Source: a bacterium
GTDB lineage: Bacteria > Desulfobacterota > Anaeroferrophillalia > Anaeroferrophillales > Tharpellaceae
Reading direction: 5' to 3'
Assembly: GCA_029932385.1 (NCBI GenBank)
Contig: JAOZQE010000005.1
Span: 1 to 41,721 of the forward strand
Length of the DNA stretch: 41,721 bases
Shown piece by piece: positions 6,977 to 38,332 of this stretch; the first letter of the stretch is position 1, and each line of letters opens with the position of its first letter. The translations under genes and the position numbers were made by a program. The notes below the pieces were generated by a model. The model was not told where the DNA came from. It saw nothing but the letters and a program-made list of their open reading frames with translations, and ran no database searches.

Positions 6977-8146
6977 ATGAATTATAAGGCACAGAGGCAG
7001 CTGACAGGCCTTGCACTTTCACTGATTATTGCAAGCCTGCTGCTCCTGGCAGGCTGTAATATCCCCTTTTTACCACGGCAAGAAATCGACTCATTCCCTA
7101 TGGATAATGAGCTGATTGAAACCATGGAAGTCACAGGAATCCTTTACACCTTGGTTGTCAACCCGCAGGCGGCCGGCGATCCGGACGCGCCCGCAGCAAT
7201 CTGGGTTCCGAGCTCGGCCTATCAGCGCGGCAGCTATGAAGTCTATACGGAGTATCTGCCCAAACCTGAAGAGAACCTTGAAGTTGCGAGGGCCGAACCT
7301 GCGACAGATGAAATCCCGACATCTGCTGCTCCTGGCGAAATCAGCCAGGATGAGATCACTGCCGCAGTTTTAGACCGTGAAGAAGAGCTCAAGGATAACC
7401 TTAAAGTCAACCTTAAGCTTCGGCGGCGGGCGCTGCTCTTTCCTTCCCGTATCTCAATCATCCGGCCCGAGATTGTAACTCTTTTGAGTCTTGAGCTTGA
7501 AGATAAATTACCTCTACGGGTTGATGAAACCCGGGATCCTAAACTCCTGCAACAGGGCCGCCTGCTGCTCAACCGTTCGGAAATTACGCATAAAGCCCAA
7601 AAATGGTTGCAAAATCAAGAAATTCCCACACCGTTTCAGTTTATTATCTTCCTTGACAGCAGTCCCGGCCGTAATTGCCAATTTTATACCTGTACCTGGA
7701 TTGACGCCCAGACCGGTAACCGGGTTGCCACATTCACCTTTCGCGCCAACCTTGAAGGCAAACTTTTAAGACCTCTGGTACCAGAGAATCCGGTACCCTT
7801 ACAAAATCTTATCAATTCAACTTCATGGTGGTGTAAAATCAGAAGCCGGCAAGAGGCTGATAACTATCTGCTGGAGGCCGGTCACCGCAGTGACCTTGAT
7901 TACGGCAGAGAACTTACGGTTTTCCGCAAAGCTGTGCCGATCAAAGATCCCAAAAGCCGCGACCGCCTCGGCTTTCTCTTTCGGGAAGCACTCGGTGTGG
8001 TTAACGTAGTCGACTTTTTTGCCGCAGATTCCAGCCTGGCTCAAGCTCAACTTCCTCTTAACGACAGCTTTAAGAGTGCCTGGGCCGTGGCAATGCCCAC
8101 TGAAGAGAGCGAAAAATCCCCAGCAGCCGTAATTCCGGCTGAGTGA
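6977..8146 (+). CDS. Lipoprotein with FlgT-C-like C-terminal domain (paralogue of upstream gene)
   Basis: Lipobox LLAGC. The C-terminal LEAGHRSDLDYGRELTVF...IKDPKSRDRLG...GVVNVVDFF aligns by eye with the upstream protein. Confidence 0.65.
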   Translation: MNYKAQRQLTGLALSLIIASLLLLAGCNIPFLPRQEIDSFPMDNELIETMEVTGILYTLVVNPQAAGDPDAPAAIWVPSSAYQRGSYEVYTEYLPKPEENLEVARAEPATDEIPTSAAPGEISQDEITAAVLDREEELKDNLKVNLKLRRRALLFPSRISIIRPEIVTLLSLELEDKLPLRVDETRDPKLLQQGRLLLNRSEITHKAQKWLQNQEIPTPFQFIIFLDSSPGRNCQFYTCTWIDAQTGNRVATFTFRANLEGKLLRPLVPENPVPLQNLINSTSWWCKIRSRQEADNYLLEAGHRSDLDYGRELTVFRKAVPIKDPKSRDRLGFLFREALGVVNVVDFFAADSSLAQAQLPLNDSFKSAWAVAMPTEESEKSPAAVIPAE

Positions 8147-8191
8147 CGCTTACTTACGAGTTTGTTTAATCATTTTCAAAAAGAGGTATGT

Positions 8192-9856
8192 ATGCGTTCA
8201 GACCTGATGACCAAAGGTATTGAGCGGGCACCGCACCGATCTCTCTTAAAAGCTATCGGTTATACTGACAGTGAATTAAAACGCCCGTTAATCGGTATCG
8301 CCCAGTCCGCCAATGAGGTAATTCCCGGCCATGTCCATCTGGACCGGGTCTGCCAGGCCGTAAAAGACGGTATCCGGATGGCCGGCGGCACACCGATGGA
8401 GTTTTCAACCATCGGTATCTGCGACGGTATCGCCATGGGCCATCAGGGCATGAAATACTCCCTGGCCTCACGTGAGCTGATCGCGGATTCGGTTGAAAGC
8501 ATGGCTCAGGCCTACCCTTTTGACGGCCTGGTACTACTGCCCAACTGCGATAAAATTGTTCCCGGAATGATCATGGCCGGCGCCCGGCTAGACCTGCCGA
8601 CGATTGTCATCAGCGGCGGCCCGATGCGAACCGGGGTCTGCAACGGCCGGGAGATTGATCTGATTACGGTTTTTGAAGGCATGGGAAAATTCAAGGTCGG
8701 CGATCTCAGTGAATCTGAACTTACCGAGATTGAGAATGCCGCCTGTCCCGGAGCCGGCTCCTGCAGCGGCATGTTCACTGCCAACTCAATGAACTGCCTG
8801 ACCGAGGCTTTGGGCATCGCCCTGCCCGGCAACGGCACCATTCTGGCAGTTGATGCGGCCCGGATCCGGCTCGCCAAAGAGAGTGGCGAAGCCTTGATGA
8901 ATCTGGTTGCAAAAAACATCACCATGCGCCAGATTTTAACCCGGGAGGCCTTTCATAACGCCCTCGCAGTTGATATGGCCTTCGGCGGCTCCACCAACAC
9001 TTCACTCCATCTTCCGGCAATCGCGCATGAGGCCGGGATCGAGCTGCCGCTGGCGGAATTTAACCGGGTCAGTGAAAAGACTCCGCATATCTGCAATATG
9101 TCACCCGGCGGCCCGGATCACATGGAAGATCTGCATCAGGCCGGCGGGGTCTCCGCAATCATGAAAACCCTGGCCCGACATAACCTCTTAAATGAAGAGA
9201 CCCTAAGTGTTACCGGTGAGACCCTTAAGGAAGTGCTTGCAGATCCCCGGGTAATGGTCCTAAATAATGAAACCATTCGCCCGCTGGACAACCCTTACCA
9301 TCCGACCGGCGGACTCGCGATCTTATCCGGCAATCTCGCCCCGGACGGTGCCGTAGTCAAGCAGTCGGCTGTAGCTCCTGAAATGCTTGAACATCAGGGC
9401 CCGGCTCGGGTTTTTGACTCCGAAGAGGCGGCCTTCTCGGCTATTATTAATCAGCAGATAAAACCTGGCGATGTGATTGTGATTCGTTATGAAGGCCCGC
9501 GAGGGGGCCCCGGCATGCGGGAGATGCTTTCACCGACTGCGGCTCTGGCCGGAATCGGGCTCGATAAAGAGGTTGCCCTGCTCACCGACGGCCGTTTCTC
9601 AGGCGGAACCCGGGGGGCGGCTATCGGCCATATTTCACCTGAAGCTGCCGCCGGAGGTCTTCTAGGTTTGGTGGCGGAGGGAGATCTGATCAAAATTGAT
9701 ATTCCCGGACGTAACCTGGAGCTCCTTGTTGATACAGACGAGCTTGAAAAACGCAACGCCGCCTGGCAGCCGCCGGCCGCCAAGATCAAGAAAGGTTACC
9801 TGGCCCGTTATGCCCGCCAGGTCGGTTCTGCCGCCAAAGGTGCGGTACTTGAGTAG
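8192..9856 (+). CDS. ilvD: Dihydroxy-acid dehydratase
   Basis: Motifs [53 protein letters not shown] and GHISPEAA. Start ATG 8192 follows GAGG. Confidence 0.97.
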
Positions 9857-17924: not shown

Positions 17925-17971
17925 AAATAAAAAAGGTGACTCACTACCGTTTTTCATAATGAGTCACCTTT
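17925..17971 (-). terminator. Terminator closing the minus-strand cluster (possibly bidirectional)
   Basis: Inverted repeat AAAGGTGACTCA (17932-17943) / TGAGTCACCTTT (17960-17971), followed by a T-run on the - strand, between convergent genes. Confidence 0.75.
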
Positions 17972-17997
17972 ATGCTGCTATTTTTTTACCGCGGCTT

Positions 17998-18699
17998 CTA
18001 CTTCTTCAATACCCGCCATGAACGTCGGCCTGATTTTGCCTCATAAATCCAGAAATTACCACTCGCCGTCCACAATTGCCGCAGCAATAACTCAGGCTGA
18101 CTCTGATTACTGCTACCTCTGGTTATTTCAACCAGGTAGAGATTAGCTGATGCGGACAAACCAGGCTGTAAATCAGGCCGAATCATACCTTCAGAGACAG
18201 CCTCGCTCCGGCTTATCTGGCGATCCTGAATAGTCAGATAAGACGCAAAACGGGCCGTGCCGACCTGCTCATAAGTAACAAATTCACGTTTTGTAGTTCC
18301 ATATACGAATGGCAGCGGCCGATTGAGCCAATCGCCAGGGATAATCGTATCGCTTAAAAGTACCGGCTTAGCCGAATCATACTGATTGGCACTACAAATT
18401 TCCTCATCATTAACCCAACGAAAACAGTCGGCCTGCTCCAAAGCCCAAACCGGGCTGAAATAGAACTCGGCCCGACAACCAACCTTCTGATCGCGATCCT
18501 CAACCGCAAATAAAAACCCATCCGCCCCGAGATTTTGCTGATTAAACCGCCAATGCACATTATTAACGGAACGACCCGGAACCAGGCTCTGATACTCAGA
18601 AACAATCGCATAGGAAAATTCGTTTTCGGCTTTTACAGCGGTAACATGCAATAATGGTATCAGCAATAAAATAAACAGAAAATAAAAATATCGCTTCAT
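17998..18699 (-). CDS. Exported hypothetical protein
   Basis: Sec signal peptide (MKRYFYFLFILLLIPLLHVTAVKA). Its ATG directly abuts the stop of the selenoprotein gene. Confidence 0.7.
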   Translation of the reverse strand: MKRYFYFLFILLLIPLLHVTAVKAENEFSYAIVSEYQSLVPGRSVNNVHWRFNQQNLGADGFLFAVEDRDQKVGCRAEFYFSPVWALEQADCFRWVNDEEICSANQYDSAKPVLLSDTIIPGDWLNRPLPFVYGTTKREFVTYEQVGTARFASYLTIQDRQISRSEAVSEGMIRPDLQPGLSASANLYLVEITRGSSNQSQPELLLRQLWTASGNFWIYEAKSGRRSWRVLKK

Positions 18700-20097
18700 T
18701 TATTTACTCTTCCCCGGCAAATCTTTACCGTGATTGACAATGGTCAAATCATGCTGATATGAAAAATCAGGATCGGTATCGTGGTTATGGCAATTGCGGC
18801 AACCCTTTTCGCTGACCGGAGTCATTCTCACCTCAGATGGAGCCTGGGCATGCTTACCTCCGGGACCATGGCACACTTCACACTGCACATTGGCCATCTT
18901 TGCGTTAACCTCCATCGAGACAAAGCCACCGACTGCATTCCTGTTAACCATTCCCGTAACATGACACACCAAACACTCAGGGTCATTTGCCTTGTTCTTT
19001 TTCTCAAGTGTATTAATGGCTCTGGCATGACGGGTTTTCTGCCAATTTTCAACAATTGACTGATGACAACTACCACACCAGTTACTGCCTAAATAGATAT
19101 TCACAGGCTTACGATTTTTCATGATTTTACGTTCTCGACGTTCACGCTTGGCCTTAATAATATCACGACGTTCTTTCCCATATTTCTCCACCAGAGCTTC
19201 CACCTGAGGGTCAGGTGTAACCTTTTCAGACACAACCCGGGTCAATACGGGTTGATCTACACTGAAACCTGCATCCTGACCGGCTCTTACGATATCAATA
19301 TAGGTAATATATTTGCCGCCAAAATTGCTGACAACAACTGGCTTGCCGGCAATAATTCTGGTTTTATTGTCGACCTTACCGGTCTCCCCATCGATAATCA
19401 GATCAGCATCCTTACCACAACCCGTGATAATTTCATGAATACGTTCGCCCTGGGCATGAACAATCAGAATAAAAATATCGTGTTTTATATTATTTTTAAT
19501 TCTGTTTACAGCTTTGATCGGGTCAGAAGCAACCACATCTTTAACCTCGAATAGATCCAGTAATTGTGGATCAATCACTGAAGTAACCAGGACCTTAAGT
19601 TTTCCGGAGTCTTTATTAAAACGTAGAAAAGGGACAAAATCTTCAACATTGGCACAAACCAGATCAGTTGCCGCCCGGTCAGCTACTTTATGAACCGTAT
19701 GCATATCCAACTTTGCATCCCAAGCTCCAAAACCGATAAGATCAAATTTATTGTAATCCATTGCGGCCATAATATACTTGAAATCAGTCTTGGCTAAAAA
19801 AGAATTATAATTCGCAATATTCCCGGCATTGATCATTATCGTCCGATCGAGGTCAGATTGTTGTAAAACTTGGCTAATAACCGTTGTACAGCGGGATAGA
19901 CCTCCCGCCTGATTACCGTGTCAACCACAGGGGGCGATATTGCCCTTGATGCCCCCGTAATAGAGAACTCGTAGCACACCATCGTCAGCCAACGGAGCAA
20001 CATTTGTCTTAAAAGCGGCACTGGCAATGGTTACTGACAGCAACAGAAAACAGCCTACCACTGCGATCTTGAAAAATCTCCATCCACATTTATTCAT
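18700..20097 (-). CDS. UshA-like selenoprotein fused to tetraheme cytochrome c (c554-like); UGA at 19921-19923 read as Sec; 465 aa
   Basis: ATG 20097 with GGAGA 8 nt upstream gives a signal peptide and ..IKGNIAPCG[TGA]HGNQAGGLSR.., in frame with the 18700..19836 ORF. A SECIS-like hairpin follows the UGA. Heme motifs are CGSCH, CLVCH, CEVCH and CRNCH. Confidence 0.88.
19889..19911 (-). promoter_or_regulatory. Bacterial SECIS-like hairpin
   Basis: mRNA CAG(G)CGGGA-GGUCUA-UCCCGCUG forms an 8-bp stem with one bulge. The apical loop begins with G, 18 nt after the UGA. Confidence 0.75.
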
Positions 20098-20148
20098 AAG
20101 CTAAGTCTCCGAACTATTTTCAAATTATAAAATTGTATCAAAAATTAT

Positions 20149-22578
20149 CTACCAACAGATGGCTGAAATCCTACTGGCTCCGTACATCGTTCCCAATATA
20201 GCCATGGCTGAAACATTTTCAGCCTGTTCAAGGTGCAGGGATCCTACTCCTTGAGCCATGGTTTCAGAACTGAACAAGGCCCCTACAGCATCACAGTATT
20301 TGGCCTGCGAACCAAGCTTGAGAATAACCTCTTCCAGCTCTTTACCATCAACCGCATAAGCCGTCAGTTTTATTTTCTGTTCAGTTTCGGCCCGATTGAT
20401 AAAAATCATGCCGGTCCACCAATAACTGTCACTTGCTATCTGAGGTAAATGTCGGGATGTTTCACTATGCATGGCTAAGAGCGGCAATGAGGCCGCGGAA
20501 TCACCCCCAAACTGGTAGGTCATAAAACCGGCAAACTCAGAGTCTGCGTGCAGACTCAACCAGGCCAAATTGATCTCCTCTTCACTGATTCCCCAGAGAG
20601 AACCATTCAGATCCAGTTCCACATGAGCAAAAGGTGCCAGATTAACAATATAATCTGCAAGTCCGGATACCTCAGAGTGACAGCGTAAAGTAACCACCAA
20701 ATCCTTCTCTGTAGGATTATAAAGTGAAAGTGTTGTACGCCAGCCGCTGCCGACCGCTGGATGAGGCAGTAACCACTCCTGAGCCAACTCAAGCAACGGC
20801 AATTGATCTTTAAGATAGTTCCCGGCACTCCGCAGAACCGCCCCGTCCAAACCGTTCCGCTCAGCATTAACCAGAGCCCAGCCGTTAACACTTATATTAT
20901 CAGGATAATCACCTTTTTCATATCGTACTATTTGCTCTCCGACCAGATTAACTTCCTGTTGCCGGTAAAATGTACCATCATCTTTATAATATCCTATGCT
21001 GACCTTATTCTCTTGATCATCAAGCTGAGCAAGATAGAGATCACTGCGAAACCGGGAATTGTAACGGCTGGTGAGCCAGGGGATGATCAGTCGTTTCGCC
21101 TGATTAACAGAACTTCTGGTAGAGCCGAAAAAGCGAGTCTCATCACCGACAAAGGTCAACCCGCACAAGGGTTCAGAGCTACTTACTTTCACGGCCAGCG
21201 GCTGATTTCCGAAACTGTAGTAATCTGTGACAATCGAGGTTGAGAGAACCGTTAAAAGTTGTTCATCCGCAGCCACATCTGCAAGTTTTCCCTCGCCATA
21301 AGGTAACCCTTTACTGCCAACCACTTCAATCCCGATCTTACCCTGATTCTCGATACTGGCCGCATTTCCCAACCAGTAACGACTGGTCGGAAAACCGTAA
21401 AACCAGTGCTGAAAAACCGCATCATAACTGGCGTAAAGCTGAACAGCATAACCGGTTTTATTCTCTTCATCCGGCTTCAACGTAAGCCGGTAAGTATCTT
21501 CAGCACTGTTTCCGGTAAGCGTAATTTCGTAAAGATTACGGTCAAGTTCCCGATCGACAACAACTTCTCCATCACGTTCGAGAATTACCCGCGCATGATT
21601 ACCGGCAACCTTCTGCCGATCGTAGGCAACCTTCAGTTTGATCGTTTCTCCATCCTGCAAATTTATAAAGAATACACGCGGGACAAGCGGTTGGAGCATT
21701 AACAGGTGATGCCCTGGTTTTAGTCGACTACCATAATACTCATCGTCGTGACTTAAGGCCATCTCCTTGACCACGTCATAATCTATAAACAGACGTTCGG
21801 GCCGCCGGGCAATCGGCACCCAGACAATATCAGGGTGATCCGCCATAGAAGCTCCGAGCCAGGAACCTCGACCTTTAATATAGTTGCCAGCTGCATCCTT
21901 ATCCAGTTTATAGGAGTAGTTTTTTTCAACTTCAACCGTTCCTTCATAGTCAGGAGGAATACCCTGATCGTTTGCGTGCCTGATTCGACATTGCACCTGA
22001 TCAGCATCGGCCCCGCGAACAATGGTCATCTCATAACTGTAGATGGGATAGGACCAGAATTCGTCGGAAATATCAAGATCAGCCGCAATTGCCTGGCCCT
22101 GTTCGCCGATATAGTTCAAGAGGTAACGGTGAAACGGTTCAGGGAAATAACAGTTTTCCCATAAAATTTCATCTTCCGCATGAATGGCCGAGAGAAGCCC
22201 TTTCTTATCTCCAACATTAAGGAAAATCTGGCGGGTTGCGGCCGGCTTAAAGTCCTGATGCTCAAGGATGGCGGCATTGGCCCAACCGTGACAGATTCCC
22301 CACCAATATGGAACATCGGGATCATGCCATGCTTCTTTTGCACTCTGGGTTGCGGCCGCCGGATAGTAACCACGGGTATAGAGATCATATTTTTCTATGG
22401 GCGAGGGGTGGCCATTGTAACCGTAGACAAGTTCACCCGACTGCAAAGGCCACCAGTATCCTGACCAGGGTTTGTGCGCGGCCTGGCCGCTCAAGGTTTC
22501 ACCATAAAGGGGCAATGCCAGAAACAGAACACTCACCAGAACCAATACGGCCCATATTCCGAATTTATTAATCATCAC
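20149..22578 (-). CDS. Exported transglutaminase-elicitor (GP42)-like protein with C-terminal repeated beta modules
   Basis: Signal peptide, then PWSGYWWP..SPIEKYD..WWGICHGWANAAILE..GDKKGLLS..EFWSYPIYSYE, which parallel Phytophthora GP42 motifs. The C-terminal half has about 4 degenerate W-x-G/T-L-x-x-x-N modules. Confidence 0.7.
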   Translation of the reverse strand: MMINKFGIWAVLVLVSVLFLALPLYGETLSGQAAHKPWSGYWWPLQSGELVYGYNGHPSPIEKYDLYTRGYYPAAATQSAKEAWHDPDVPYWWGICHGWANAAILEHQDFKPAATRQIFLNVGDKKGLLSAIHAEDEILWENCYFPEPFHRYLLNYIGEQGQAIAADLDISDEFWSYPIYSYEMTIVRGADADQVQCRIRHANDQGIPPDYEGTVEVEKNYSYKLDKDAAGNYIKGRGSWLGASMADHPDIVWVPIARRPERLFIDYDVVKEMALSHDDEYYGSRLKPGHHLLMLQPLVPRVFFINLQDGETIKLKVAYDRQKVAGNHARVILERDGEVVVDRELDRNLYEITLTGNSAEDTYRLTLKPDEENKTGYAVQLYASYDAVFQHWFYGFPTSRYWLGNAASIENQGKIGIEVVGSKGLPYGEGKLADVAADEQLLTVLSTSIVTDYYSFGNQPLAVKVSSSEPLCGLTFVGDETRFFGSTRSSVNQAKRLIIPWLTSRYNSRFRSDLYLAQLDDQENKVSIGYYKDDGTFYRQQEVNLVGEQIVRYEKGDYPDNISVNGWALVNAERNGLDGAVLRSAGNYLKDQLPLLELAQEWLLPHPAVGSGWRTTLSLYNPTEKDLVVTLRCHSEVSGLADYIVNLAPFAHVELDLNGSLWGISEEEINLAWLSLHADSEFAGFMTYQFGGDSAASLPLLAMHSETSRHLPQIASDSYWWTGMIFINRAETEQKIKLTAYAVDGKELEEVILKLGSQAKYCDAVGALFSSETMAQGVGSLHLEQAENVSAMAILGTMYGASRISAICW

Positions 22579-23036
22579 TTCTCTTTAATTTTATCAGTAT
22601 CAGATTTCCCGGAGACATCTGATTTTTTCTTCACAAACGGATTAATTGCAGATGCAGACGGCTTAATATACCAGTTATCAGTTTTCCAGACCCAGTTCAA
22701 CAGCAACGGCACTTTATTAAAAGTAAAACCCATCGCATTAATTTTATTCTCTATTTTAGTCTCTGCCTGCAAGCCGTCATCAGCAATCTTGATTGCGATA
22801 ATGGTGCTCTCTTTGACAACAATATTACCCCTTTTTACTCTTTCAGGTTCAAGATAAAGCTGGCGCAGCTGACCCAAATCATTTTTTTTACGGGCCTCAA
22901 TGTAGTTGTCAAGACGCTGTTTAAGAAGAATATTTTTATCAACCGGTTTCCCTCCAAGGCCGTTGCAGGCTGTAAATAAAAACGCCCCCAGTAAAATAAC
23001 GCAAAACCAGGTAACCCTCTTCTGATATATTTTCAT
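22575..23036 (-). CDS. Small lipoprotein (possible NTF2-like fold)
   Basis: Lipobox FTAC. GAGG lies upstream, and the stop overlaps the next start (ATGA). Confidence 0.7.
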   Translation of the reverse strand: MKIYQKRVTWFCVILLGAFLFTACNGLGGKPVDKNILLKQRLDNYIEARKKNDLGQLRQLYLEPERVKRGNIVVKESTIIAIKIADDGLQAETKIENKINAMGFTFNKVPLLLNWVWKTDNWYIKPSASAINPFVKKKSDVSGKSDTDKIKEK

Positions 23037-23220
23037 CTTTAGTTTTCCTCATTATCGGTATAATTAATTACGGCATCAACATTAAACCATAGTATTTTTC
23101 CAGTCAATTAAAATATTGTTAATTAAATTAATTATACATTCCTGATATCAGTAAATTTAAACTCGACAGCTATCTGTTTCTGATCTCTATCTATAAATGG
23201 ATATTTCCTGACGTTGGCAC

Positions 23221-23256
23221 AAAAAAGGAGAGGCCTTATGGCCTCTCCTTTTTTTT
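23221..23256 (-). terminator. Rho-independent terminator after the Cys-rich gene (bidirectional form)
   Basis: AAAAAAGGAGAGGCC-TTAT-GGCCTCTCCTTTTTTTT. Confidence 0.9.
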
Positions 23257-23311
23257 AATTTCAAGGATATCTTTTAACCAGAATTATCCTTTAAGTACTT
23301 CTATGGGATGA

Positions 23312-24562
23312 CTACGGCTTAGGACAATAGCCACGTATTTTACTAACACCACAACCCTCGCATGCACCCTTTGGAACCAGGTAGCCCTGAGCTAATTCGA
23401 GACCGTAACCAATAGTTACATATCCCTGAAGCCCTTGGTCAGCTACGATCTTAGCATACATCGGCGCATCAGCCGGCAGAGCCAACTCAGACAGAATATC
23501 TCCGACATTCACAGCTTCGACACTCTTCGCATCAATCTCAAGAGTCTTGCTTGCACTCTCACCGTCAGCATAAAAAGTGATCGTTGCGGTTGTGCTTGTG
23601 GCATTAGCATTTGTCAGCGCAAGACCAGTCCACCAGCCTTCACCAAACGCCATATACGGCAGACACATATAACAATCACTTGTGAAGCATTCAGAGAACA
23701 CACCGATTTCAACCAGACATTCACACAGAATCTTACAAGCGCCGGCACAGATATCGTCATTGTCAGGCATCTCAACGATCTCAACCTTGATCTTAACGGC
23801 TACGCCGAGTTGAATATCTGCTTCATTCGGATCATAGACCAGAGTCGGAATGTCGATCAGAAGGATAGACTGCAGATTCGTCATCAGATTCGTGTAGCAG
23901 GTCTGAACTGCGGTCACCCGGTTATCGTCGCAGGTAAAACAGCAGTCATCATCATTATCGTCAATATCAAACAGAGTCTGACCTGCAGTCATCGAGTAAT
24001 AATCAAGGGCGATCTTGGTAGCATCATCATCACAAGGATCAAGACAGAAATCACCACCGGTTAAACTCGGATCTTCGAATGTACCAACCCGAATCGGATC
24101 ATCAGCAAGAGGGGCAGCATCGGGACAATCAATATTACTAGCATCATCATAGCAATCCATATCATCACGGGCGACGTTGGAATTAGTCCAGTAGACACCA
24201 CCGGCAGGTTCCATAATAGTCAGACGGATCGCGTAAGATCCAGAAGTAGTAAATTCATCGATCTTTTCACAATCACAGAGCTTGAAAATGATGCCTCTGA
24301 CATTATGCTCGTCACAATAATTACCACCATCATAGTTGCTACCAAGTTCGTAATCAAACGTCGGGCACGGGCATTTAGAACCCTGAACCGGTGCACATGC
24401 CTTCAATTCGATCTGCTGGCCATAAGTCCAGGGAGCCTTAGCATTTTTGTCACATACAGCCTGAACACAAGGTTCACCGATTATGTCCGCACTAAAACCA
24501 GCAGCCACGGTCGTCAAAACGAATGCCATGGCCAGCAACAAAATTAAACTACTTTTTCTCAT
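23312..24562 (-). CDS. Exported Cys-rich (26 Cys), Asp-rich protein; candidate surface-layer/structural subunit
   Basis: Signal peptide, 26 Cys counted by hand, no CxxCH, and a C-terminal LPYM..GWWTGLALTN module. GGAGG lies upstream, and the gene has its own promoter and terminator. Confidence 0.75.
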   Translation of the reverse strand: MRKSSLILLLAMAFVLTTVAAGFSADIIGEPCVQAVCDKNAKAPWTYGQQIELKACAPVQGSKCPCPTFDYELGSNYDGGNYCDEHNVRGIIFKLCDCEKIDEFTTSGSYAIRLTIMEPAGGVYWTNSNVARDDMDCYDDASNIDCPDAAPLADDPIRVGTFEDPSLTGGDFCLDPCDDDATKIALDYYSMTAGQTLFDIDDNDDDCCFTCDDNRVTAVQTCYTNLMTNLQSILLIDIPTLVYDPNEADIQLGVAVKIKVEIVEMPDNDDICAGACKILCECLVEIGVFSECFTSDCYMCLPYMAFGEGWWTGLALTNANATSTTATITFYADGESASKTLEIDAKSVEAVNVGDILSELALPADAPMYAKIVADQGLQGYVTIGYGLELAQGYLVPKGACEGCGVSKIRGYCPKP

Positions 24563-24865
24563 CTGTTTCCTCCATTGTTTGTTAGCGATCTCCCTAAAAA
24601 GAGGGTAGATCTTTAAAAAAACTACAATTAAAAATAAAACACTTACACTTAAAATTTAGACCAAAACATTATTGGGGTAAGCTCTTACCCCGCGACACTA
24701 ACCTTCAGATTATCCTAACCTCAACCCCACCTCCTTTTTTGATCCCTCAAGCTACGCATCCTCTTAATAAATGCTGGAGTTAACGGCTCGGAGGGTCTTC
24801 GGGTCAGCCAGCGGGTCGTTTGGCATTACCCTGCTACCGACTATTAAACGATTCTAGAACGCCAT

Positions 24866-24893
24866 ACTATACGAGTCGCAATTTATTTGTCAA
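24866..24893 (-). promoter_or_regulatory. Near-consensus sigma70 promoter for the Cys-rich gene
   Basis: On the - strand: TTGACA (24893-24888), 16 nt, TATAGT (24871-24866), with AT-rich sequence upstream. Confidence 0.6.
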
Positions 24894-25088: not shown

Positions 25089-27323
25089 CTACTGATACGT
25101 CTTTTTGACCTCTTCAAGACGGTTAAGGAAAGGACGGCTGACAAACAGCGAGTCCTCTTCCTGGAGAACAACGTGCGGCGTGATAAAGAACATCAACTCA
25201 ACCGAGTGAAACTCATTACCCTCATAACCAACCAGATAGCGCAAGCCGGGAATCCGGCCGAGCCAGGGTACGCCGCTGTAGCCGTTACTCCGGCTCTGCT
25301 GGATGAGGCCACCGATAACAATCGTCTGGCCGTCGGCAACCGAAAGTACGGTCTCGGCCACCCGCTGCGAGAAGATCGGTGAATTGATCCCTTCGATAGT
25401 TTTATTTGAGAGCTGGCTGACCTCCTGATTAATCTCCATCCGCACCATACCGTTATCATTTATATGGGGGGTGACATTCAGGATAATCCCGACGTTACGA
25501 TATTGAATCGTGGTATCGGTGGTCTGAGCGGTCGAACCTGAATCGGTTGTCCGGTAACTTGAGGTTACGGTCGGAACATCCTCACCGACGTCAATTTTGG
25601 CGGTCTCACCATCGGAGGCCAGAATCTGCGGTGCCGAAAGGATATTGACCTTGTTATCCTCAGCCAGGGCCCGGACTATCGCCTTGAATCGAGTTGAATT
25701 ACTGACCAGAAAACTTAAACCGGAACCGACCAAGCTTTTTCCGCTGCCATCGATCAGGCCGAGACCGGAGTCAACCCCGATCAGACCGTTGGCATTGCCG
25801 CCGCCAAGGCCCTTCATCAGATAACTCCACTCGATGCCAAGCTTATTGGTTTCATCAAGCTTGACTTCGGCGATCGTTACTTCAATCAGAACCTGTTTCG
25901 GATAGATATCAAGTTTCTCAATAACCGGTTTGATCTTGCGATAATCATTGCCGGTGGCCCGGACCAGGATCGAGTTGGTTGTATCATCGACGACAAAAGT
26001 AACATCGCCCTCCAGGGTACCACTGACCGCGGCCCCGGGCCGGGCTTTGCGTTTATCTGCGGTGATCCGATTCTGGCGCTGATTATCCAGAATCTGCCGG
26101 CCGAGTGGTCTCGATTTATCTTTATCATCATCTTGAGTTTTTTTCTTCTCGTCGCCCGTGAAAAGACCTTCGAGAACCGCAACAATATCTTTCGCCACAC
26201 CATTTTGAATATAGTGGACAAAGATATCTTCACCCTGAGAATCCTGAGCCAGAATCGGAACCTCGCGATCGAGTTCACCAACCCACTCATCTACCAAAGA
26301 CAAAGATTCGAGATCACGGGAAAGGACAAGAATCATATTGATCCGCGGCAGAGCGAGAAAAGTCAACGAAGAGTTGGGATTACTCCCCTTACCGGCCGCC
26401 AGTCCGTAGGTTCCGGTCAGTTTCTCTAATTCCTTGACCATATCCTCGGCGTTGACATACTTTAAGAGGTAGACCCGTTGCTCAAGTCCGGCAAGCACGC
26501 TGGTATCAAAAAGCAGAAGCAGGCGTGCGACCTTACCTAGAACATGACTATAATCACTGACCAAAAGAATACCGCTTGCCTCATGGACATAGACCTGGGC
26601 TCCCTTACTTAAGTAAGGTTTAATAATGTTAACAAACTGGTCTCCGGGAAGATAACGCAGGCGATAAGCCCGAATAACCCGGCCCCGACTTTTTACCGAC
26701 TCACCCGGCAACAGGAGTTCACCCGCTTCCGCCGCCGCCGGGAGTGAAGCCTGGGGCATGATCTCCCACAACGGGCCGCGTTTAACCATGGCCACGCCGT
26801 TCATGCGTAAAACCCCATTCAATAGGGCCGAGATCTCTTCCCGGTTAAGCTCGGCATTAACCTCTAAGGTAACCTTGCCGCCAACCCCCTGATAGATTGT
26901 ATAGTTCTCTTGCAGAATATCCATAAAGAGACGTATAACTTCTACAAGGTCAGCATCGTCAAAATTCAGGGTAACCATCTCCCGACCCTTGATCTCACCC
27001 TTGATGTGATGGGTTTCCATCCCGGGAGCGGGACTTACCGCCCCGGTGGTAAAGCGTTTCAAACGCTGGTTCAGATCTTGTTCACGAACCTCAAGTTTTT
27101 CAAGCAGGTCATTTTTTTCCGTATCTTCATCTGCAACCTGATCCGATTCTTCCGTTTTCGCCGCGTTGTTCACCTGCGTCGGCGAAGGACGGTCCTTTAA
27201 AAGCCCGCCGGGAGGTAGTGCGTAGTCACTGGCCGTAGGTCGGAGAAAAGTACACGAGGTCAGCAGCAGACCGCTCATCAGAATAAGTAGTAATTGGAAA
27301 AATAATTTATGGTTTGTTCGCAT
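25089..27323 (-). CDS. gspD: Type II secretion secretin (lipoprotein-type)
   Basis: LNFDDADL (N0), KQVLIEVTIAEV, NILSAPQIL..A.IDVGEDVP, YRNVGIILNVTPHIN, GQTIVIGGLI and GVPWLGRIP. Lipobox LTSC. Confidence 0.95.
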   Translation of the reverse strand: MRTNHKLFFQLLLILMSGLLLTSCTFLRPTASDYALPPGGLLKDRPSPTQVNNAAKTEESDQVADEDTEKNDLLEKLEVREQDLNQRLKRFTTGAVSPAPGMETHHIKGEIKGREMVTLNFDDADLVEVIRLFMDILQENYTIYQGVGGKVTLEVNAELNREEISALLNGVLRMNGVAMVKRGPLWEIMPQASLPAAAEAGELLLPGESVKSRGRVIRAYRLRYLPGDQFVNIIKPYLSKGAQVYVHEASGILLVSDYSHVLGKVARLLLLFDTSVLAGLEQRVYLLKYVNAEDMVKELEKLTGTYGLAAGKGSNPNSSLTFLALPRINMILVLSRDLESLSLVDEWVGELDREVPILAQDSQGEDIFVHYIQNGVAKDIVAVLEGLFTGDEKKKTQDDDKDKSRPLGRQILDNQRQNRITADKRKARPGAAVSGTLEGDVTFVVDDTTNSILVRATGNDYRKIKPVIEKLDIYPKQVLIEVTIAEVKLDETNKLGIEWSYLMKGLGGGNANGLIGVDSGLGLIDGSGKSLVGSGLSFLVSNSTRFKAIVRALAEDNKVNILSAPQILASDGETAKIDVGEDVPTVTSSYRTTDSGSTAQTTDTTIQYRNVGIILNVTPHINDNGMVRMEINQEVSQLSNKTIEGINSPIFSQRVAETVLSVADGQTIVIGGLIQQSRSNGYSGVPWLGRIPGLRYLVGYEGNEFHSVELMFFITPHVVLQEEDSLFVSRPFLNRLEEVKKTYQ

Positions 27324-37823: not shown

Positions 37824-38332
37824 TTGGCGCTCCGTGTTACTCGCTGATTTTCACGTTCCAATTCTACCCAAACCGGGAGCAGAGATTTTTTAAGAGGATA
37901 AATTGAACGGCTTTTCTGTAAAACTGTAAAAGCTTTTTTATTTTCTCCAAGACGGTAAGCGCAACTTCCTATAGATGTCAGGAACAAGATTGAAAGCGGA
38001 TCACCTGATAATCCCTCCTCATAACACTTCAGAGCCGCACGAAGCCGGCCTGACTGTTGATAACTATTACCGGCAGTCAAATAAGCTCTACAGATACGCG
38101 GGTAGTAACCACTATATTGAGCTCCTTTCTGCCAGGCTTGTACAGCTCTCCGGTAATCGTATCCGGCTTCCAGCAGTCGGCCCTGACGTAAGGCTGCTTC
38201 AGCAGCTTTGAATCGAGCTTCCATATGAACTATCTGTAGCCGTCGGCTAACGGTACTGATCCCAAACCAGCTCAAACCCAGAAAGACCAGGAAAAAAAGA
38301 GCCGCAACGATTAATACAGATTTTCGTTTCAT
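37820..38332 (-). CDS. Membrane-anchored TPR protein
   Basis: An N-terminal TM and TPR-like helices (AYLTAGNSYQQSGRLRAALKCYEEGL..DP). It overlaps both neighbours by 4 nt. Confidence 0.7.
   Translation of the reverse strand: MKRKSVLIVAALFFLVFLGLSWFGISTVSRRLQIVHMEARFKAAEAALRQGRLLEAGYDYRRAVQAWQKGAQYSGYYPRICRAYLTAGNSYQQSGRLRAALKCYEEGLSGDPLSILFLTSIGSCAYRLGENKKAFTVLQKSRSIYPLKKSLLPVWVELERENQRVTRSAK

Follow-up and report, generated by a model that had tools for sequence, protein, structure and literature searches.

The window, i.e., the whole stretch of DNA that was analysed (41,721 nucleotides), contains on its minus strand a reading frame that opens at ATG 20097, is closed by a TAA at 18700–18702, and has a TGA at 19921–19923 (codon 59) as its sole interruption. 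ATG 20097 is the first possible start because an in-frame TAG (20103–20101) is located two codons 5′ of it. The translation reads MNKCGWRFFKIAVVGCFLLLSVTIASAAFKT...NIAPCG, then the TGA (19923–19921), then HGNQAGGLSRC...TIMINAGN, and continues through an ORF of 378 aa (18700–19836). The ORF list cuts this gene into a 58-aa ORF and the 378-aa ORF; the latter lacks a signal peptide and starts within a conserved strand (TIMINAGN). Re-reading of the minus strand bore out the earlier note, which had described a single TGA at codon 59 of the ATG 20097 frame joining it to the 378-aa cytochrome ORF, a gene split by the ORF track, and a cytochrome without a signal peptide unless the TGA is read through. 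The features of the locus are as follows.

18700–20097, minus strand: complete predicted selenoprotein gene of 465 codons and a TAA stop, interrupted by a single in-frame TGA (U59)
20107–20110, minus strand: putative ribosome-binding site GGAG, 9 nt upstream of the ATG, recognized from the sequence
20017–20097, minus strand: predicted signal peptide, residues 1–27, with a basic n-region, a hydrophobic core, and A-S-A followed by A
19921–19929, minus strand: putative active-site motif C57-G58-U59 (TGT GGT TGA), with the Sec codon at 19921–19923, from homologue comparison
19890–19909, minus strand: SECIS-type hairpin, with the 5′ arm at 19909–19903, the loop GGUCUA at 19902–19897, and the 3′ arm at 19896–19890
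19138–19980, minus strand: 5′-nucleotidase/metallophosphatase-fold domain, residues ~40–320, from the family profile and Foldseek, with degenerate metal ligands
18730–19095, minus strand: tetraheme cytochrome c554-like domain, residues ~335–456 (Pfam PF13435, 1e-15; PDB 1bvb_A, 1.2e-23 with the profile)
17998–18699, minus strand: orf233, secreted, of no known family, its ATG abutting the stop of the Sec gene; conserved downstream partner
17932–17971, minus strand: terminator-like hairpin, a 16-bp stem followed by a T run, 3′ of orf233
20149–22578, minus strand: orf809, secreted, with a transglutaminase-elicitor-like region (PF16683, 5.6e-16); conserved upstream partner
22575–23036, minus strand: orf153, lipoprotein-like (LFTAC), first gene of the probable operon, overlapping the orf809 start by 4 nt

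The Sec gene is probably co-transcribed with the three secreted proteins encoded by orf153, orf809, and orf233. A homologue of the Sec gene is adjoined by orf233 in 10/30 loci and by orf809 in 7/30, to which loci L060 and L061 are added in both cases; orf153 is also kept in these two. In the ESM Atlas, the best lead for orf233 was a DUF3108-like one (0.93), for which recognition stayed below the threshold, and orf809 returned only its own TGase_elicitor cluster.

The read-through product consists of a signal peptide and two domains. The cleavage site of the signal peptide was placed by rule, and the structure model (pLDDT 90.6, pTM 0.86) shows a helix at residues 4–28; comparable N-termini are present in all 26 read-through homologues. 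With the family profile, the N-terminal domain matched PDB chains of 5′-nucleotidases (E 2.5e-29) and SoxB (7.1e-21), and the predicted model gave Foldseek matches to 3ivd_A (1.6e-18) and UshA (2ush_A, 5.5e-16). A single-sequence search of the PDB returned the cytochrome domain only, the 5′-nucleotidase chains being reached only with the profile. The C-terminal domain carries CxxCH motifs at residues 341–345, 375–379, 406–410, and 433–437, which are invariant, together with H357 and H416, in the homologue alignment A2.

The metal ligands of the ancestral fold are largely missing. Dimetal metallophosphatases carry DxH, GD, GNH(E/D), H, and GH motifs; at the corresponding positions, as mapped by profile alignment and motif definitions from general knowledge, the window protein has G49/K51, N93, G124-A-W-D127, and E238, and only H214 is retained. 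In comparison with the canonical motifs, the Asp/His of motif I is replaced by Gly/Lys, the Asp of GD by Asn, GNHE by GAWD, and the His of GH by Glu. The ligand columns are partly conserved in the family: over 67 homologues, Asp is found in 24/67, no His is dominant, Asp is found in 22/67, and His in 25/67. The columns of C57 and U59 (the latter as Cys), on the other hand, are invariant in 67/67 full-length homologues. These features bear on a reading to which we assign a small but appreciable probability: the product would be a selenoprotein, but its N-terminal domain would still be a metal-dependent phosphoesterase or SoxB-like hydrolase, with the Cys/Sec pair playing a structural or regulatory role. 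The similarity of fold and profile to 5′-nucleotidases and SoxB is consistent with such a role, as are a weak match to the SoxB model TIGR04486 (4.7e-9) and a profile alignment that puts the second Cys of the family on a Cys of the snake-venom 5′-nucleotidase chain 5h7w; the equivalent Cys in vertebrate 5′-nucleotidase is presumably disulfide-bonded. Yet this reading has to accommodate metal-ligand columns that are not conserved while both Cys columns are, and redox chemistry is favored because the metallophosphatase-fold domain is fused to four hemes.

The decoding of the TGA was assessed from the corresponding codon in other genomes. A related-locus search with the single protein as query gave no relatives; with alignment A3 as query, relatives were found in many phyla. 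Full-length matches carrying one TGA were seen again in relatives. The aligned codon in these homologous loci is TGA in 25/28 and TGT in 3/28, or TGA in 26/29 when the window gene is counted, locus L042 standing outside this count as it holds the C-terminal part only. The TGA-bearing relatives span several genera and families, and 25/26 TGA-bearing loci give read-through ORFs of 443–506 aa with hydrophobic N-termini, the exception being L035, with an early stop at 343 aa. The upstream 58 codons are kept as protein, the window protein and that of L031 sharing 68% identity over 140 residues (E 5.5e-68). Among 80 named public loci from many phyla, some records of which may duplicate genomes already in the relatives' set, the aligned codon is TGA in 39/80 and a Cys codon in 41/80, and nothing else occurs. 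The genome to which the window belongs contains two paralogues with TGA at the identical codon. At the protein level, a database search gave 5469 representative proteins at E ≤ 0.001, many of them related through the cytochrome domain alone; the motif lies within 118 of the 204 proteins retrieved in all, and it reads C-x-C in 116. P0082, a fragmentary homologue of 287 aa, has Arg at the Sec column. Apart from this fragment, the comparison returned Cys or TGA at the position, neither Trp nor a variable residue, which is the pattern the earlier note had named as support for Sec.

The same data weigh on the possibility that the TGA is a true stop, either in a pseudogene with a recent nonsense mutation or an assembly error, or between two genes, one for a peptide of 58 aa and one for a cytochrome of 378 aa. 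Standard gene calling does yield two ORFs, TGA ends other genes in the window, and close relatives are present in public databases only as the 378-aa form: the nearest proteins (P0002–P0008, 378–389 aa, covering 80–82% of the query) all start past the TGA, and 25/26 of the best database matches begin no earlier than query residue 74, P0082 again being the odd one out. However, a true stop does not account for the recurrence of TGA at this codon in 25/28 other loci and in 39/80 named ones, or for the conservation of the upstream 58 codons as protein. Moreover, the 378-aa ORF would begin in a conserved strand and be without the signal peptide on which attachment of heme c depends in cytochrome c maturation. 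The earlier note had also raised a sequencing error or recent nonsense mutation; contigs X2 and X4 from public runs (depths ~28 and 36) carry the same TGA with no variant, although these runs are possibly the source of the assembly. Taken together, a true stop is very improbable. Two further runs were searched; the public runs listed included none of RNA. Run X5, which is independent, gave no contig across 19774–19927, so the codon lies outside its coverage, and run X6 gave short pieces of 90–95% likeness over the motif and hairpin, which probably derive from relatives or paralogues.

Directly downstream of the TGA, the transcript can form a 7-bp hairpin (GGCGGGA / GGUCUA / UCCCGCU) over the codons for A-G-G-L-S-R. 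The stem begins 11 nt past the UGA and the GGUCUA loop 18 nt past it; the GC stem with a G-starting loop described in the earlier note is thus real, but the 18-nt offset given there applies to the loop and not to the stem. The folding check recommended there recovered the 7-bp hairpin, but the energy of the 76-nt stretch is unremarkable (z = −1.24; 27/200 shuffles fold equally well or better). An Rfam scan of 19500–20300 at E ≤ 10 found no SECIS family, its three matches (one lncRNA family, two of snoRNAs) being due to chance. What supports the hairpin is therefore the comparison of relatives and not its fold energy. With the alignment register set by the hairpin of the window itself, the stem positions pair in 83.5% of 182 cells, as against 29.7–47.8% when the partner is slid, and 0/500 shuffles match the observed pairing or covariation, the kin compared being not independent. 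The closing pair is A-U in 9 relatives, C-G in 9, U-G in 4, and other in 4; in place of the window's 6-nt loop, some relatives show one of 4 nt (GGUC). GGTC is located at +19 to +22 in 23/26 TGA forms, the Gly at this place being encoded by GGT in 24/26, compared with 4/41 Cys forms. The stem's conservation is in part at the protein level, since the sequence beneath it encodes the conserved peptide AGGLSR.

As in SelB-dependent genes, the hairpin lies directly 3′ of the UGA, has a G-containing apical loop, and stands at an fdhF-like distance, the last being judged against the distances generally accepted for bacterial SECIS elements. In both Escherichia coli fdhF and the window gene, the TGA is followed by CACGG, and GGTC is found at +19 to +22 atop a G+C-rich stem. 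The fdhF element contains a bulged U, and the GU bases of its loop contact SelB; the window stem differs in being a perfect 7-bp helix capped by a loop of 6 nt. The earlier view that the geometry fits bacterial SECIS elements agrees with this spacing and GGUC and with the compensatory changes by which the hairpin is kept.

The genome, which is 89.6% complete, contains all components of the Sec machinery that the earlier note had proposed to look for: profile matches to selB (400.8 bits), selA (587.9), selD (373.1), and tRNA-Sec (selC; 72.1) all lie above the curated cut-offs. ARAGORN identified the tRNA as tRNA-SeC with anticodon tca, and selD itself contains one TGA. Elsewhere in the window, TGA is an ordinary stop, closing 3/25 long open frames, among them a lipoprotein-like ORF just 5′ of ilvD and a glycosyltransferase ORF. 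The TGA at 8144–8146 was considered as a possible second Sec codon, since ORFs 6977–8146 and 8162–9856 share a frame; it was rejected because the downstream ORF is a complete IlvD and the upstream one an unrelated lipoprotein-like ORF. That a standard amino acid is inserted at the TGA of codon 59, by a recoded code (Trp or Gly) or near-cognate read-through, deserves hardly any credence: any inserted residue would open the frame, but TGA terminates unrelated genes, the homologous residue is not Trp or Gly but Cys, giving the hallmark alternation of Sec and Cys, the Sec system is complete, and the downstream hairpin is conserved with fdhF-like geometry.

Collectively, the Sec/Cys alternation, the covariation of the hairpin, and the Sec machinery support the main claim of the earlier note, a hidden selenoprotein with an in-frame UGA, and the TGA at 19921–19923 very probably encodes selenocysteine in an enzyme of the periplasm. 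The hairpin, 11–30 nt past the UGA, would recruit SelB with Sec-tRNA(Sec). Sec decoding would therefore yield a single 465-residue pre-protein and not a 58-aa peptide and a leaderless cytochrome. The signal peptide would direct it to the periplasm, where the four hemes c would be attached. The mature protein is predicted to be a two-domain oxidoreductase in which a long helix connects a 5′-nucleotidase fold of the UshA/SoxB metallophosphatase type, with its canonical dimetal ligands mostly lost, to the tetraheme cytochrome c554-like domain. Cys57-Gly-Sec59 would lie in the loop right after the first strand, adjoining the ancestral active site. The C-x-U pair may be the catalytic redox center, which would cycle via a selenenylsulfide or bind a substrate that is a chalcogen or metal(loid); electrons may travel to or from it through the hemes. 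Judged from sequence and models, we hold with high confidence the explanation as a whole, i.e., Sec decoding, a periplasmic two-domain oxidoreductase, and a divergent paralogue within the UshA-like CxU proteins.

Family assignment points the same way. The best NCBIfam match is NF041198 (UshA_like_PCGU; E 1.6e-54, 185.4 bits), in line with the link to UshA-like CxU (seleno)proteins drawn in the earlier note. The equivalog cut-off of 275 bits is not reached by the window protein or by its orthologues L031–L040 (184.6–260.9 bits), whereas C78, the canonical paralogue encoded in the same genome, reaches 357.5; the N-terminal part (window 19564–19989) contributes 31.2 bits compared with 145.5 for the C-terminal part. 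The window protein is regarded as a divergent paralogue because of its 185 bits against the cut-off of 275. With its C-x-U/C-x-C column, Sec/Cys alternation, COG0737-type fold, and multiheme c554-like domain, the gene product falls, by sequence comparison, within the UshA-like (seleno)protein family in its broad sense. This family, with its CxU motif, has been listed in reviews since 2008, in passages cataloguing it in PMC2398784 and in tables of PMC9312934 and PMC13188914. Since it is already catalogued there, the gene is not a new kind of selenoprotein, and the novelty implied in the earlier note was set too high. A literature search found no paper on the function of the family.

It is conceivable, if rather doubtful, that the clade is a functionally distinct, systematically mis-annotated subfamily that has wholly lost the phosphatase metal site and, with a conserved extracytoplasmic module, performs an undescribed Se-dependent periplasmic redox reaction. 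The module may comprise orf416 (Cys-rich, secreted), orf153, orf809, the Sec-tetraheme enzyme, and orf233, and is seen in Thermodesulfobacteriota MAGs from marine-sediment and hydrothermal metagenomes. Its substrates could be, for example, species of sulfur, selenium, or metal(loid)s, or else protein thiols on which the transglutaminase-like partner also works. In this window the gene is mis-called, as gene callers cut a real gene in two. The subfamily is invisible to standard annotation because its close relatives in the databases searched are only leaderless proteins of ~378 aa, and it falls below the NCBIfam cut-off that would rescue it. More broadly, a widespread family appears to combine four hemes with a Cys/Sec redox pair on what was once a phosphatase scaffold, and three Sec-bearing paralogues in one 2.3-Mb genome, together with the conserved neighbors, offer handles for finding the substrate.

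Among known systems, the UshA-like proteins of NF041198 (the COG0737-type selenoprotein of the GOS survey) share with the window protein the P-C-G-U motif, Sec/Cys alternation at one column, and the combination of a 5′-nucleotidase-like N-terminal and a cytochrome c554-like C-terminal domain. The window's group differs in having its own conserved neighbors, orf809 and orf233, which were not found in the short flanks available beside the same-genome paralogues. The dimetal metallophosphatases UshA, CD73, and SoxB resemble the window protein in the fold of residues ~40–320 and in their periplasmic or extracytoplasmic location, but the window family has degenerate metal ligands and an added invariant C-x-C/U, and the C-terminal nucleotide-binding domain is replaced by the tetraheme cytochrome. 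The latter is of the same type as cytochrome c554 of Nitrosomonas (PDB 1bvb). ExtKL (NF040886) and MccSep (PDB 9wt8) likewise combine c-type hemes and Sec in one polypeptide; however, their matches (19 bits and E 0.005, respectively) are at the level of the heme motifs only, and the predicted Sec of the window protein sits in a separate non-heme domain.

On the minus strand of the window, a frame of 465 codons with a single internal TGA encodes a UshA-like region followed by a tetraheme cytochrome.

18700-20097, minus strand: candidate selenoprotein gene, ATG 20097 to TAA 18702-18700; sole internal stop TGA 19923-19921, codon 59
20110-20107, minus strand: ribosome-binding GGAG, 5' of ATG 20097
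19909-19890, minus strand: SECIS-type hairpin with a perfect 7-bp stem, GGCGGGA / UCCCGCU, and a GGUCUA loop

Read from this strand, the translation is MNKCGWRFFKIAVVGCFLLLSVTIASAAFKT...GNIAPCG, TGA, HGNQAGGLSRC...; two codons 5' of the ATG, the frame is closed by a TAG. The sequence confirms the earlier note in that the frame from ATG 20097, with its one TGA, runs into the cytochrome ORF. As the note had also stated, mechanical ORF listing divides the gene, giving pieces of 58 aa (19921-20097) and 378 aa (18700-19836); the latter starts at the Met of TIMINAGN, within a conserved strand, and indeed has no signal peptide.

This UGA very probably encodes selenocysteine (Sec) in the UshA-like cytochrome fusion. 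A search of 60 related genomes (E <= 1e-20) gave matches in 38, the window's own genome included, and the majority of the full-length matches contain "1 TGA". When the first 140 residues were aligned to the 30 retained loci, 29 spanned codon 59, L042 contributing its C-terminal part only; of these 29 (window counted), 26 have TGA there and three have TGT (L052, L055, and L058). The surrounding peptide is conserved, with 68% identity to the relative's locus L031 over 140 residues. Named public loci were drawn from many phyla (Thermodesulfobacteriota, Nitrospinota, Nitrospirota, Krumholzibacteriota, Latescibacterota, Fibrobacterota, Acidobacteriota, and others), and some may duplicate genomes of the related search; all 80 align across the motif, with TGA in 39, a Cys codon in 41, and any other codon in none. 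The Cys that the earlier note had proposed to look for at the UGA position, or TGA itself, is present in 29/29 aligned loci of the first set (window counted) and 80/80 named loci.

Among database proteins, the C57 and U59 columns are both invariant Cys in 67/67 full-length homologues, chosen from 204 retrieved proteins for N-terminal coverage and similar length. To undo this selection, all 204 were then aligned: 86 stop short of the motif, being truncated at the N-terminus or consisting of the cytochrome alone, and 116 of the 118 that cover it have C-x-C (CGC in 103, CNC in nine, and CSC, CRC, CEC, and CHC in one each). The exceptions are P0057, an ordinary 5'-nucleotidase (E 7.7e-6), and P0082, with C-G-R. 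The latter, a 287-aa database fragment close to the Sec forms, has C-G-R-P in place of C-G-U-H and is the only motif-covering family member without Cys or Sec at that column; its Arg may stem from mutation of TGA to CGA, from an error, or from inactivation of this copy. In the window itself, the codon is matched without variant by contigs from two public runs (depths 27.8 and 35.8), both of which may be the assembly's source; the one clearly independent run leaves the codon uncovered.

A recoded genetic code is excluded because TGA stops unrelated genes of the window: it is the ordinary stop of 3/25 open frames of at least 250 codons, and a glycosyltransferase ORF closes with TGA at 38329. At 6977-9856 (plus strand), a 389-aa lipoprotein-like ORF is followed in the same frame by ilvD (dihydroxy-acid dehydratase; start ~8162-8190); this stretch was rejected as a split gene, since a genuine TGA stop at 8144-8146, immediately ahead of ilvD, separates two genes. 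The 2.35-Mb genome, in 206 contigs and 89.6% complete, holds the Sec machinery that the earlier note had proposed to look for: selA (profile score 587.9 bits), selB (400.8), selD (373.1), and a tRNA-Sec scoring 72.1 bits, identified by ARAGORN as a tRNA-SeC (anticodon tca). The selD gene (G000:C99:4142-5068, minus strand, locus L010) has an in-frame TGA (…AAAGUAAKIG…) and then a hairpin; therefore, the organism's selenophosphate synthetase is itself a selenoprotein.

Downstream of codon 59, the hairpin stem begins after 11 nt and the GGUCUA loop after 18 nt. The stem and G-starting loop described in the earlier note stand, except that its figure of 18 nt applies to the loop rather than the stem. 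The folding energy of the region is unexceptional (z = -1.24; 27/200 shuffles equally good), and an Rfam search of it gave no family match. GGTC occupies +19..+22 in 23/26 TGA-bearing loci, and 24/26 use GGT for the glycine encoded there; the equivalent codon is GGT in only 4/41 Cys forms of the wider named set. This GGT bias of the Sec forms is a synonymous-site preference, for which selection on the protein gives no explanation. The window's 7-bp helix was scored on an ungapped alignment of the 26 TGA loci, which are kin sequences, in the window's register and over codons of the conserved A-G-G-L-S/A-R: 83.5% of 182 cells are paired, against 29.7-47.8% with the partner slid by 1-3 columns, and the observed pairing or covariation score was reached in 0/500 shuffles. 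The closing pair is A-U in nine loci, C-G in nine, U-G in four, and unpaired in four, and in one subgroup the register is shifted and the loop is a 4-nt GGUC. The Sec forms of more distant phyla differ in the sequence that follows the UGA (GGTC in just 10/39); this divergence 3' of the UGA fits lineage-specific SECIS shapes and suggests that the same gene family has different ones outside Thermodesulfobacteriota. Sec forms beyond that phylum (within L070-L137) were seen without the GGUC loop, many sharing ...GGCGGGTTGGCCCGGAGGGCC... 3' of the UGA.

The best NCBIfam match is NF041198 ('UshA_like_PCGU', UshA-like (seleno)protein; E 1.6e-54), and the selenoprotein hypothesis of the earlier note, with its link to UshA-like CxU proteins, was right. 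A CxU 'COG0737, UshA-like' selenoprotein family, counting 76 sequences with Sec and 92 homologues with Cys, appears in the 2008 GOS survey (PMC2398784), and the family recurs in a 2022 review (PMC9312934) and in a 2026 review citing NF041198 (PMC13188914). With this selenoprotein family already on record, the window gene is a new and divergent member of it that has gone un-annotated. Scored as read-through translations, the window protein reaches 185.4 bits against NF041198, under the curated 275, and its orthologous group 184.6 (L031), 202 (L032), 220 (L033), 224.9 (L037), and 260.9 (L040). The 'LCGU' group gives 206.6 (L043) and 191 (own-genome contig C52); only the canonical group exceeds the cut-off (own-genome contig C78, 357.5; L057, 325.6; L059, 342.9). 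The window protein and its orthologues thus represent a divergent paralogue that the equivalog model would not rescue, which fits the nearest public proteins, some from NCBI, being 354-393-aa truncations. The genome's two further paralogues, C78:221-1537 (plus strand, PCGUHKNPRGGLAK) and C52:17391-18671 (minus strand, LCGUHKKQAGGLAR), have TGA at the same codon, and of these the C78 copy alone passes the cut-off.

The gene lies within a conserved cassette.

17932-24893, minus strand: cassette from orf416 to the terminator past orf233, also in L060 and L061
24893-24866, minus strand: near-consensus promoter upstream of orf416 (consensus scan)
23221-23254: palindromic terminator between orf416 and orf153 (consensus scan)
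17971-17932, minus strand: terminator-like hairpin after orf233 (consensus scan)

Many loci being short, orf233 is directly downstream of the homologue in 10/30 and orf809 directly upstream in 7/30. The whole order orf416-orf153-orf809-Sec gene-orf233 is repeated in L061 and L060, named Thermodesulfobacteriota/Ca. Tharpella MAG records; within short flanks, none of these four partners was found beside the C52 or C78 paralogue. The placement of the terminators and promoter, from the consensus scan only, suggests that orf153-orf809-Sec gene-orf233 form an operon. The orf416 product is acidic and Cys-rich with a signal peptide, that of orf153 is lipoprotein-like, and orf809 has a transglutaminase-elicitor-like region (TGase_elicitor, PF16683, 5.6e-16); family searches with orf416, orf153, and orf233 gave no match. 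Upstream, the secreted-protein cassette adjoins a type II secretion secretin, GspD (25089-27323, minus strand; TIGR02517, 409 bits).

Pfam recognizes in the window protein the C-terminal cytochrome alone (PF13435 Cytochrome_C554, 1e-15). A profile of 68 family members matched 5'-nucleotidases (5h7w_A, E 2.5e-29), UshA (1ush_A, 7e-24), SoxB (2wdc_A, 7.1e-21), and cytochrome c554 (1bvb_A, 1.2e-23). In a confident AlphaFold2 model (pLDDT 90.6, pTM 0.86), residues ~1-310 superpose on 5'-nucleotidases (3ivd_A, 1.6e-18; 2ush_A, 5.5e-16), and a long helix (297-328) connects this part to the heme domain, whose CxxCH motifs at 341, 375, 406, and 433, H357, and H416 are all invariant. The profile alignment places C-G-C/U in the loop directly past the first strand, after the phosphatase DxH position. 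The DxH ligands are G49 and K51 in the window protein (Asp in 24/67 homologues, no dominant His), the GD ligand is N93 (Asp in 22/67), the GH ligand is E238 (His in 25/67), and the GNHE motif reads G-A-W-D at 124-127. Poorly kept ligand columns beside two Cys columns invariant in 67/67 lead us to read the domain as a re-used phosphatase scaffold, which would now serve a Cys/Sec redox site connected to four hemes. A redox role for the C-x-U site is moderately probable. Full-text literature searching returned no paper on the function of the UshA-like family, publications merely listing it. Three points are mildly new: a subfamily that scores under the curated threshold, phosphatase ligands that have been lost, and a cassette of secreted proteins that is conserved; the value of the gene is in its annotation and a biochemical question, and it would not surprise a specialist.

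The N-terminal domain of the window protein has its fold in common with 5'-nucleotidases, UshA, and SoxB, but their canonical metal-ligand columns are poorly kept here. The recoding site resembles that of Escherichia coli fdhF (NC_000913.3), in which CACGG comes right after the Sec codon and GGTC sits at +19..+22; the window has the same letters at the same spacing. In fdhF this loop is the site that SelB binds.
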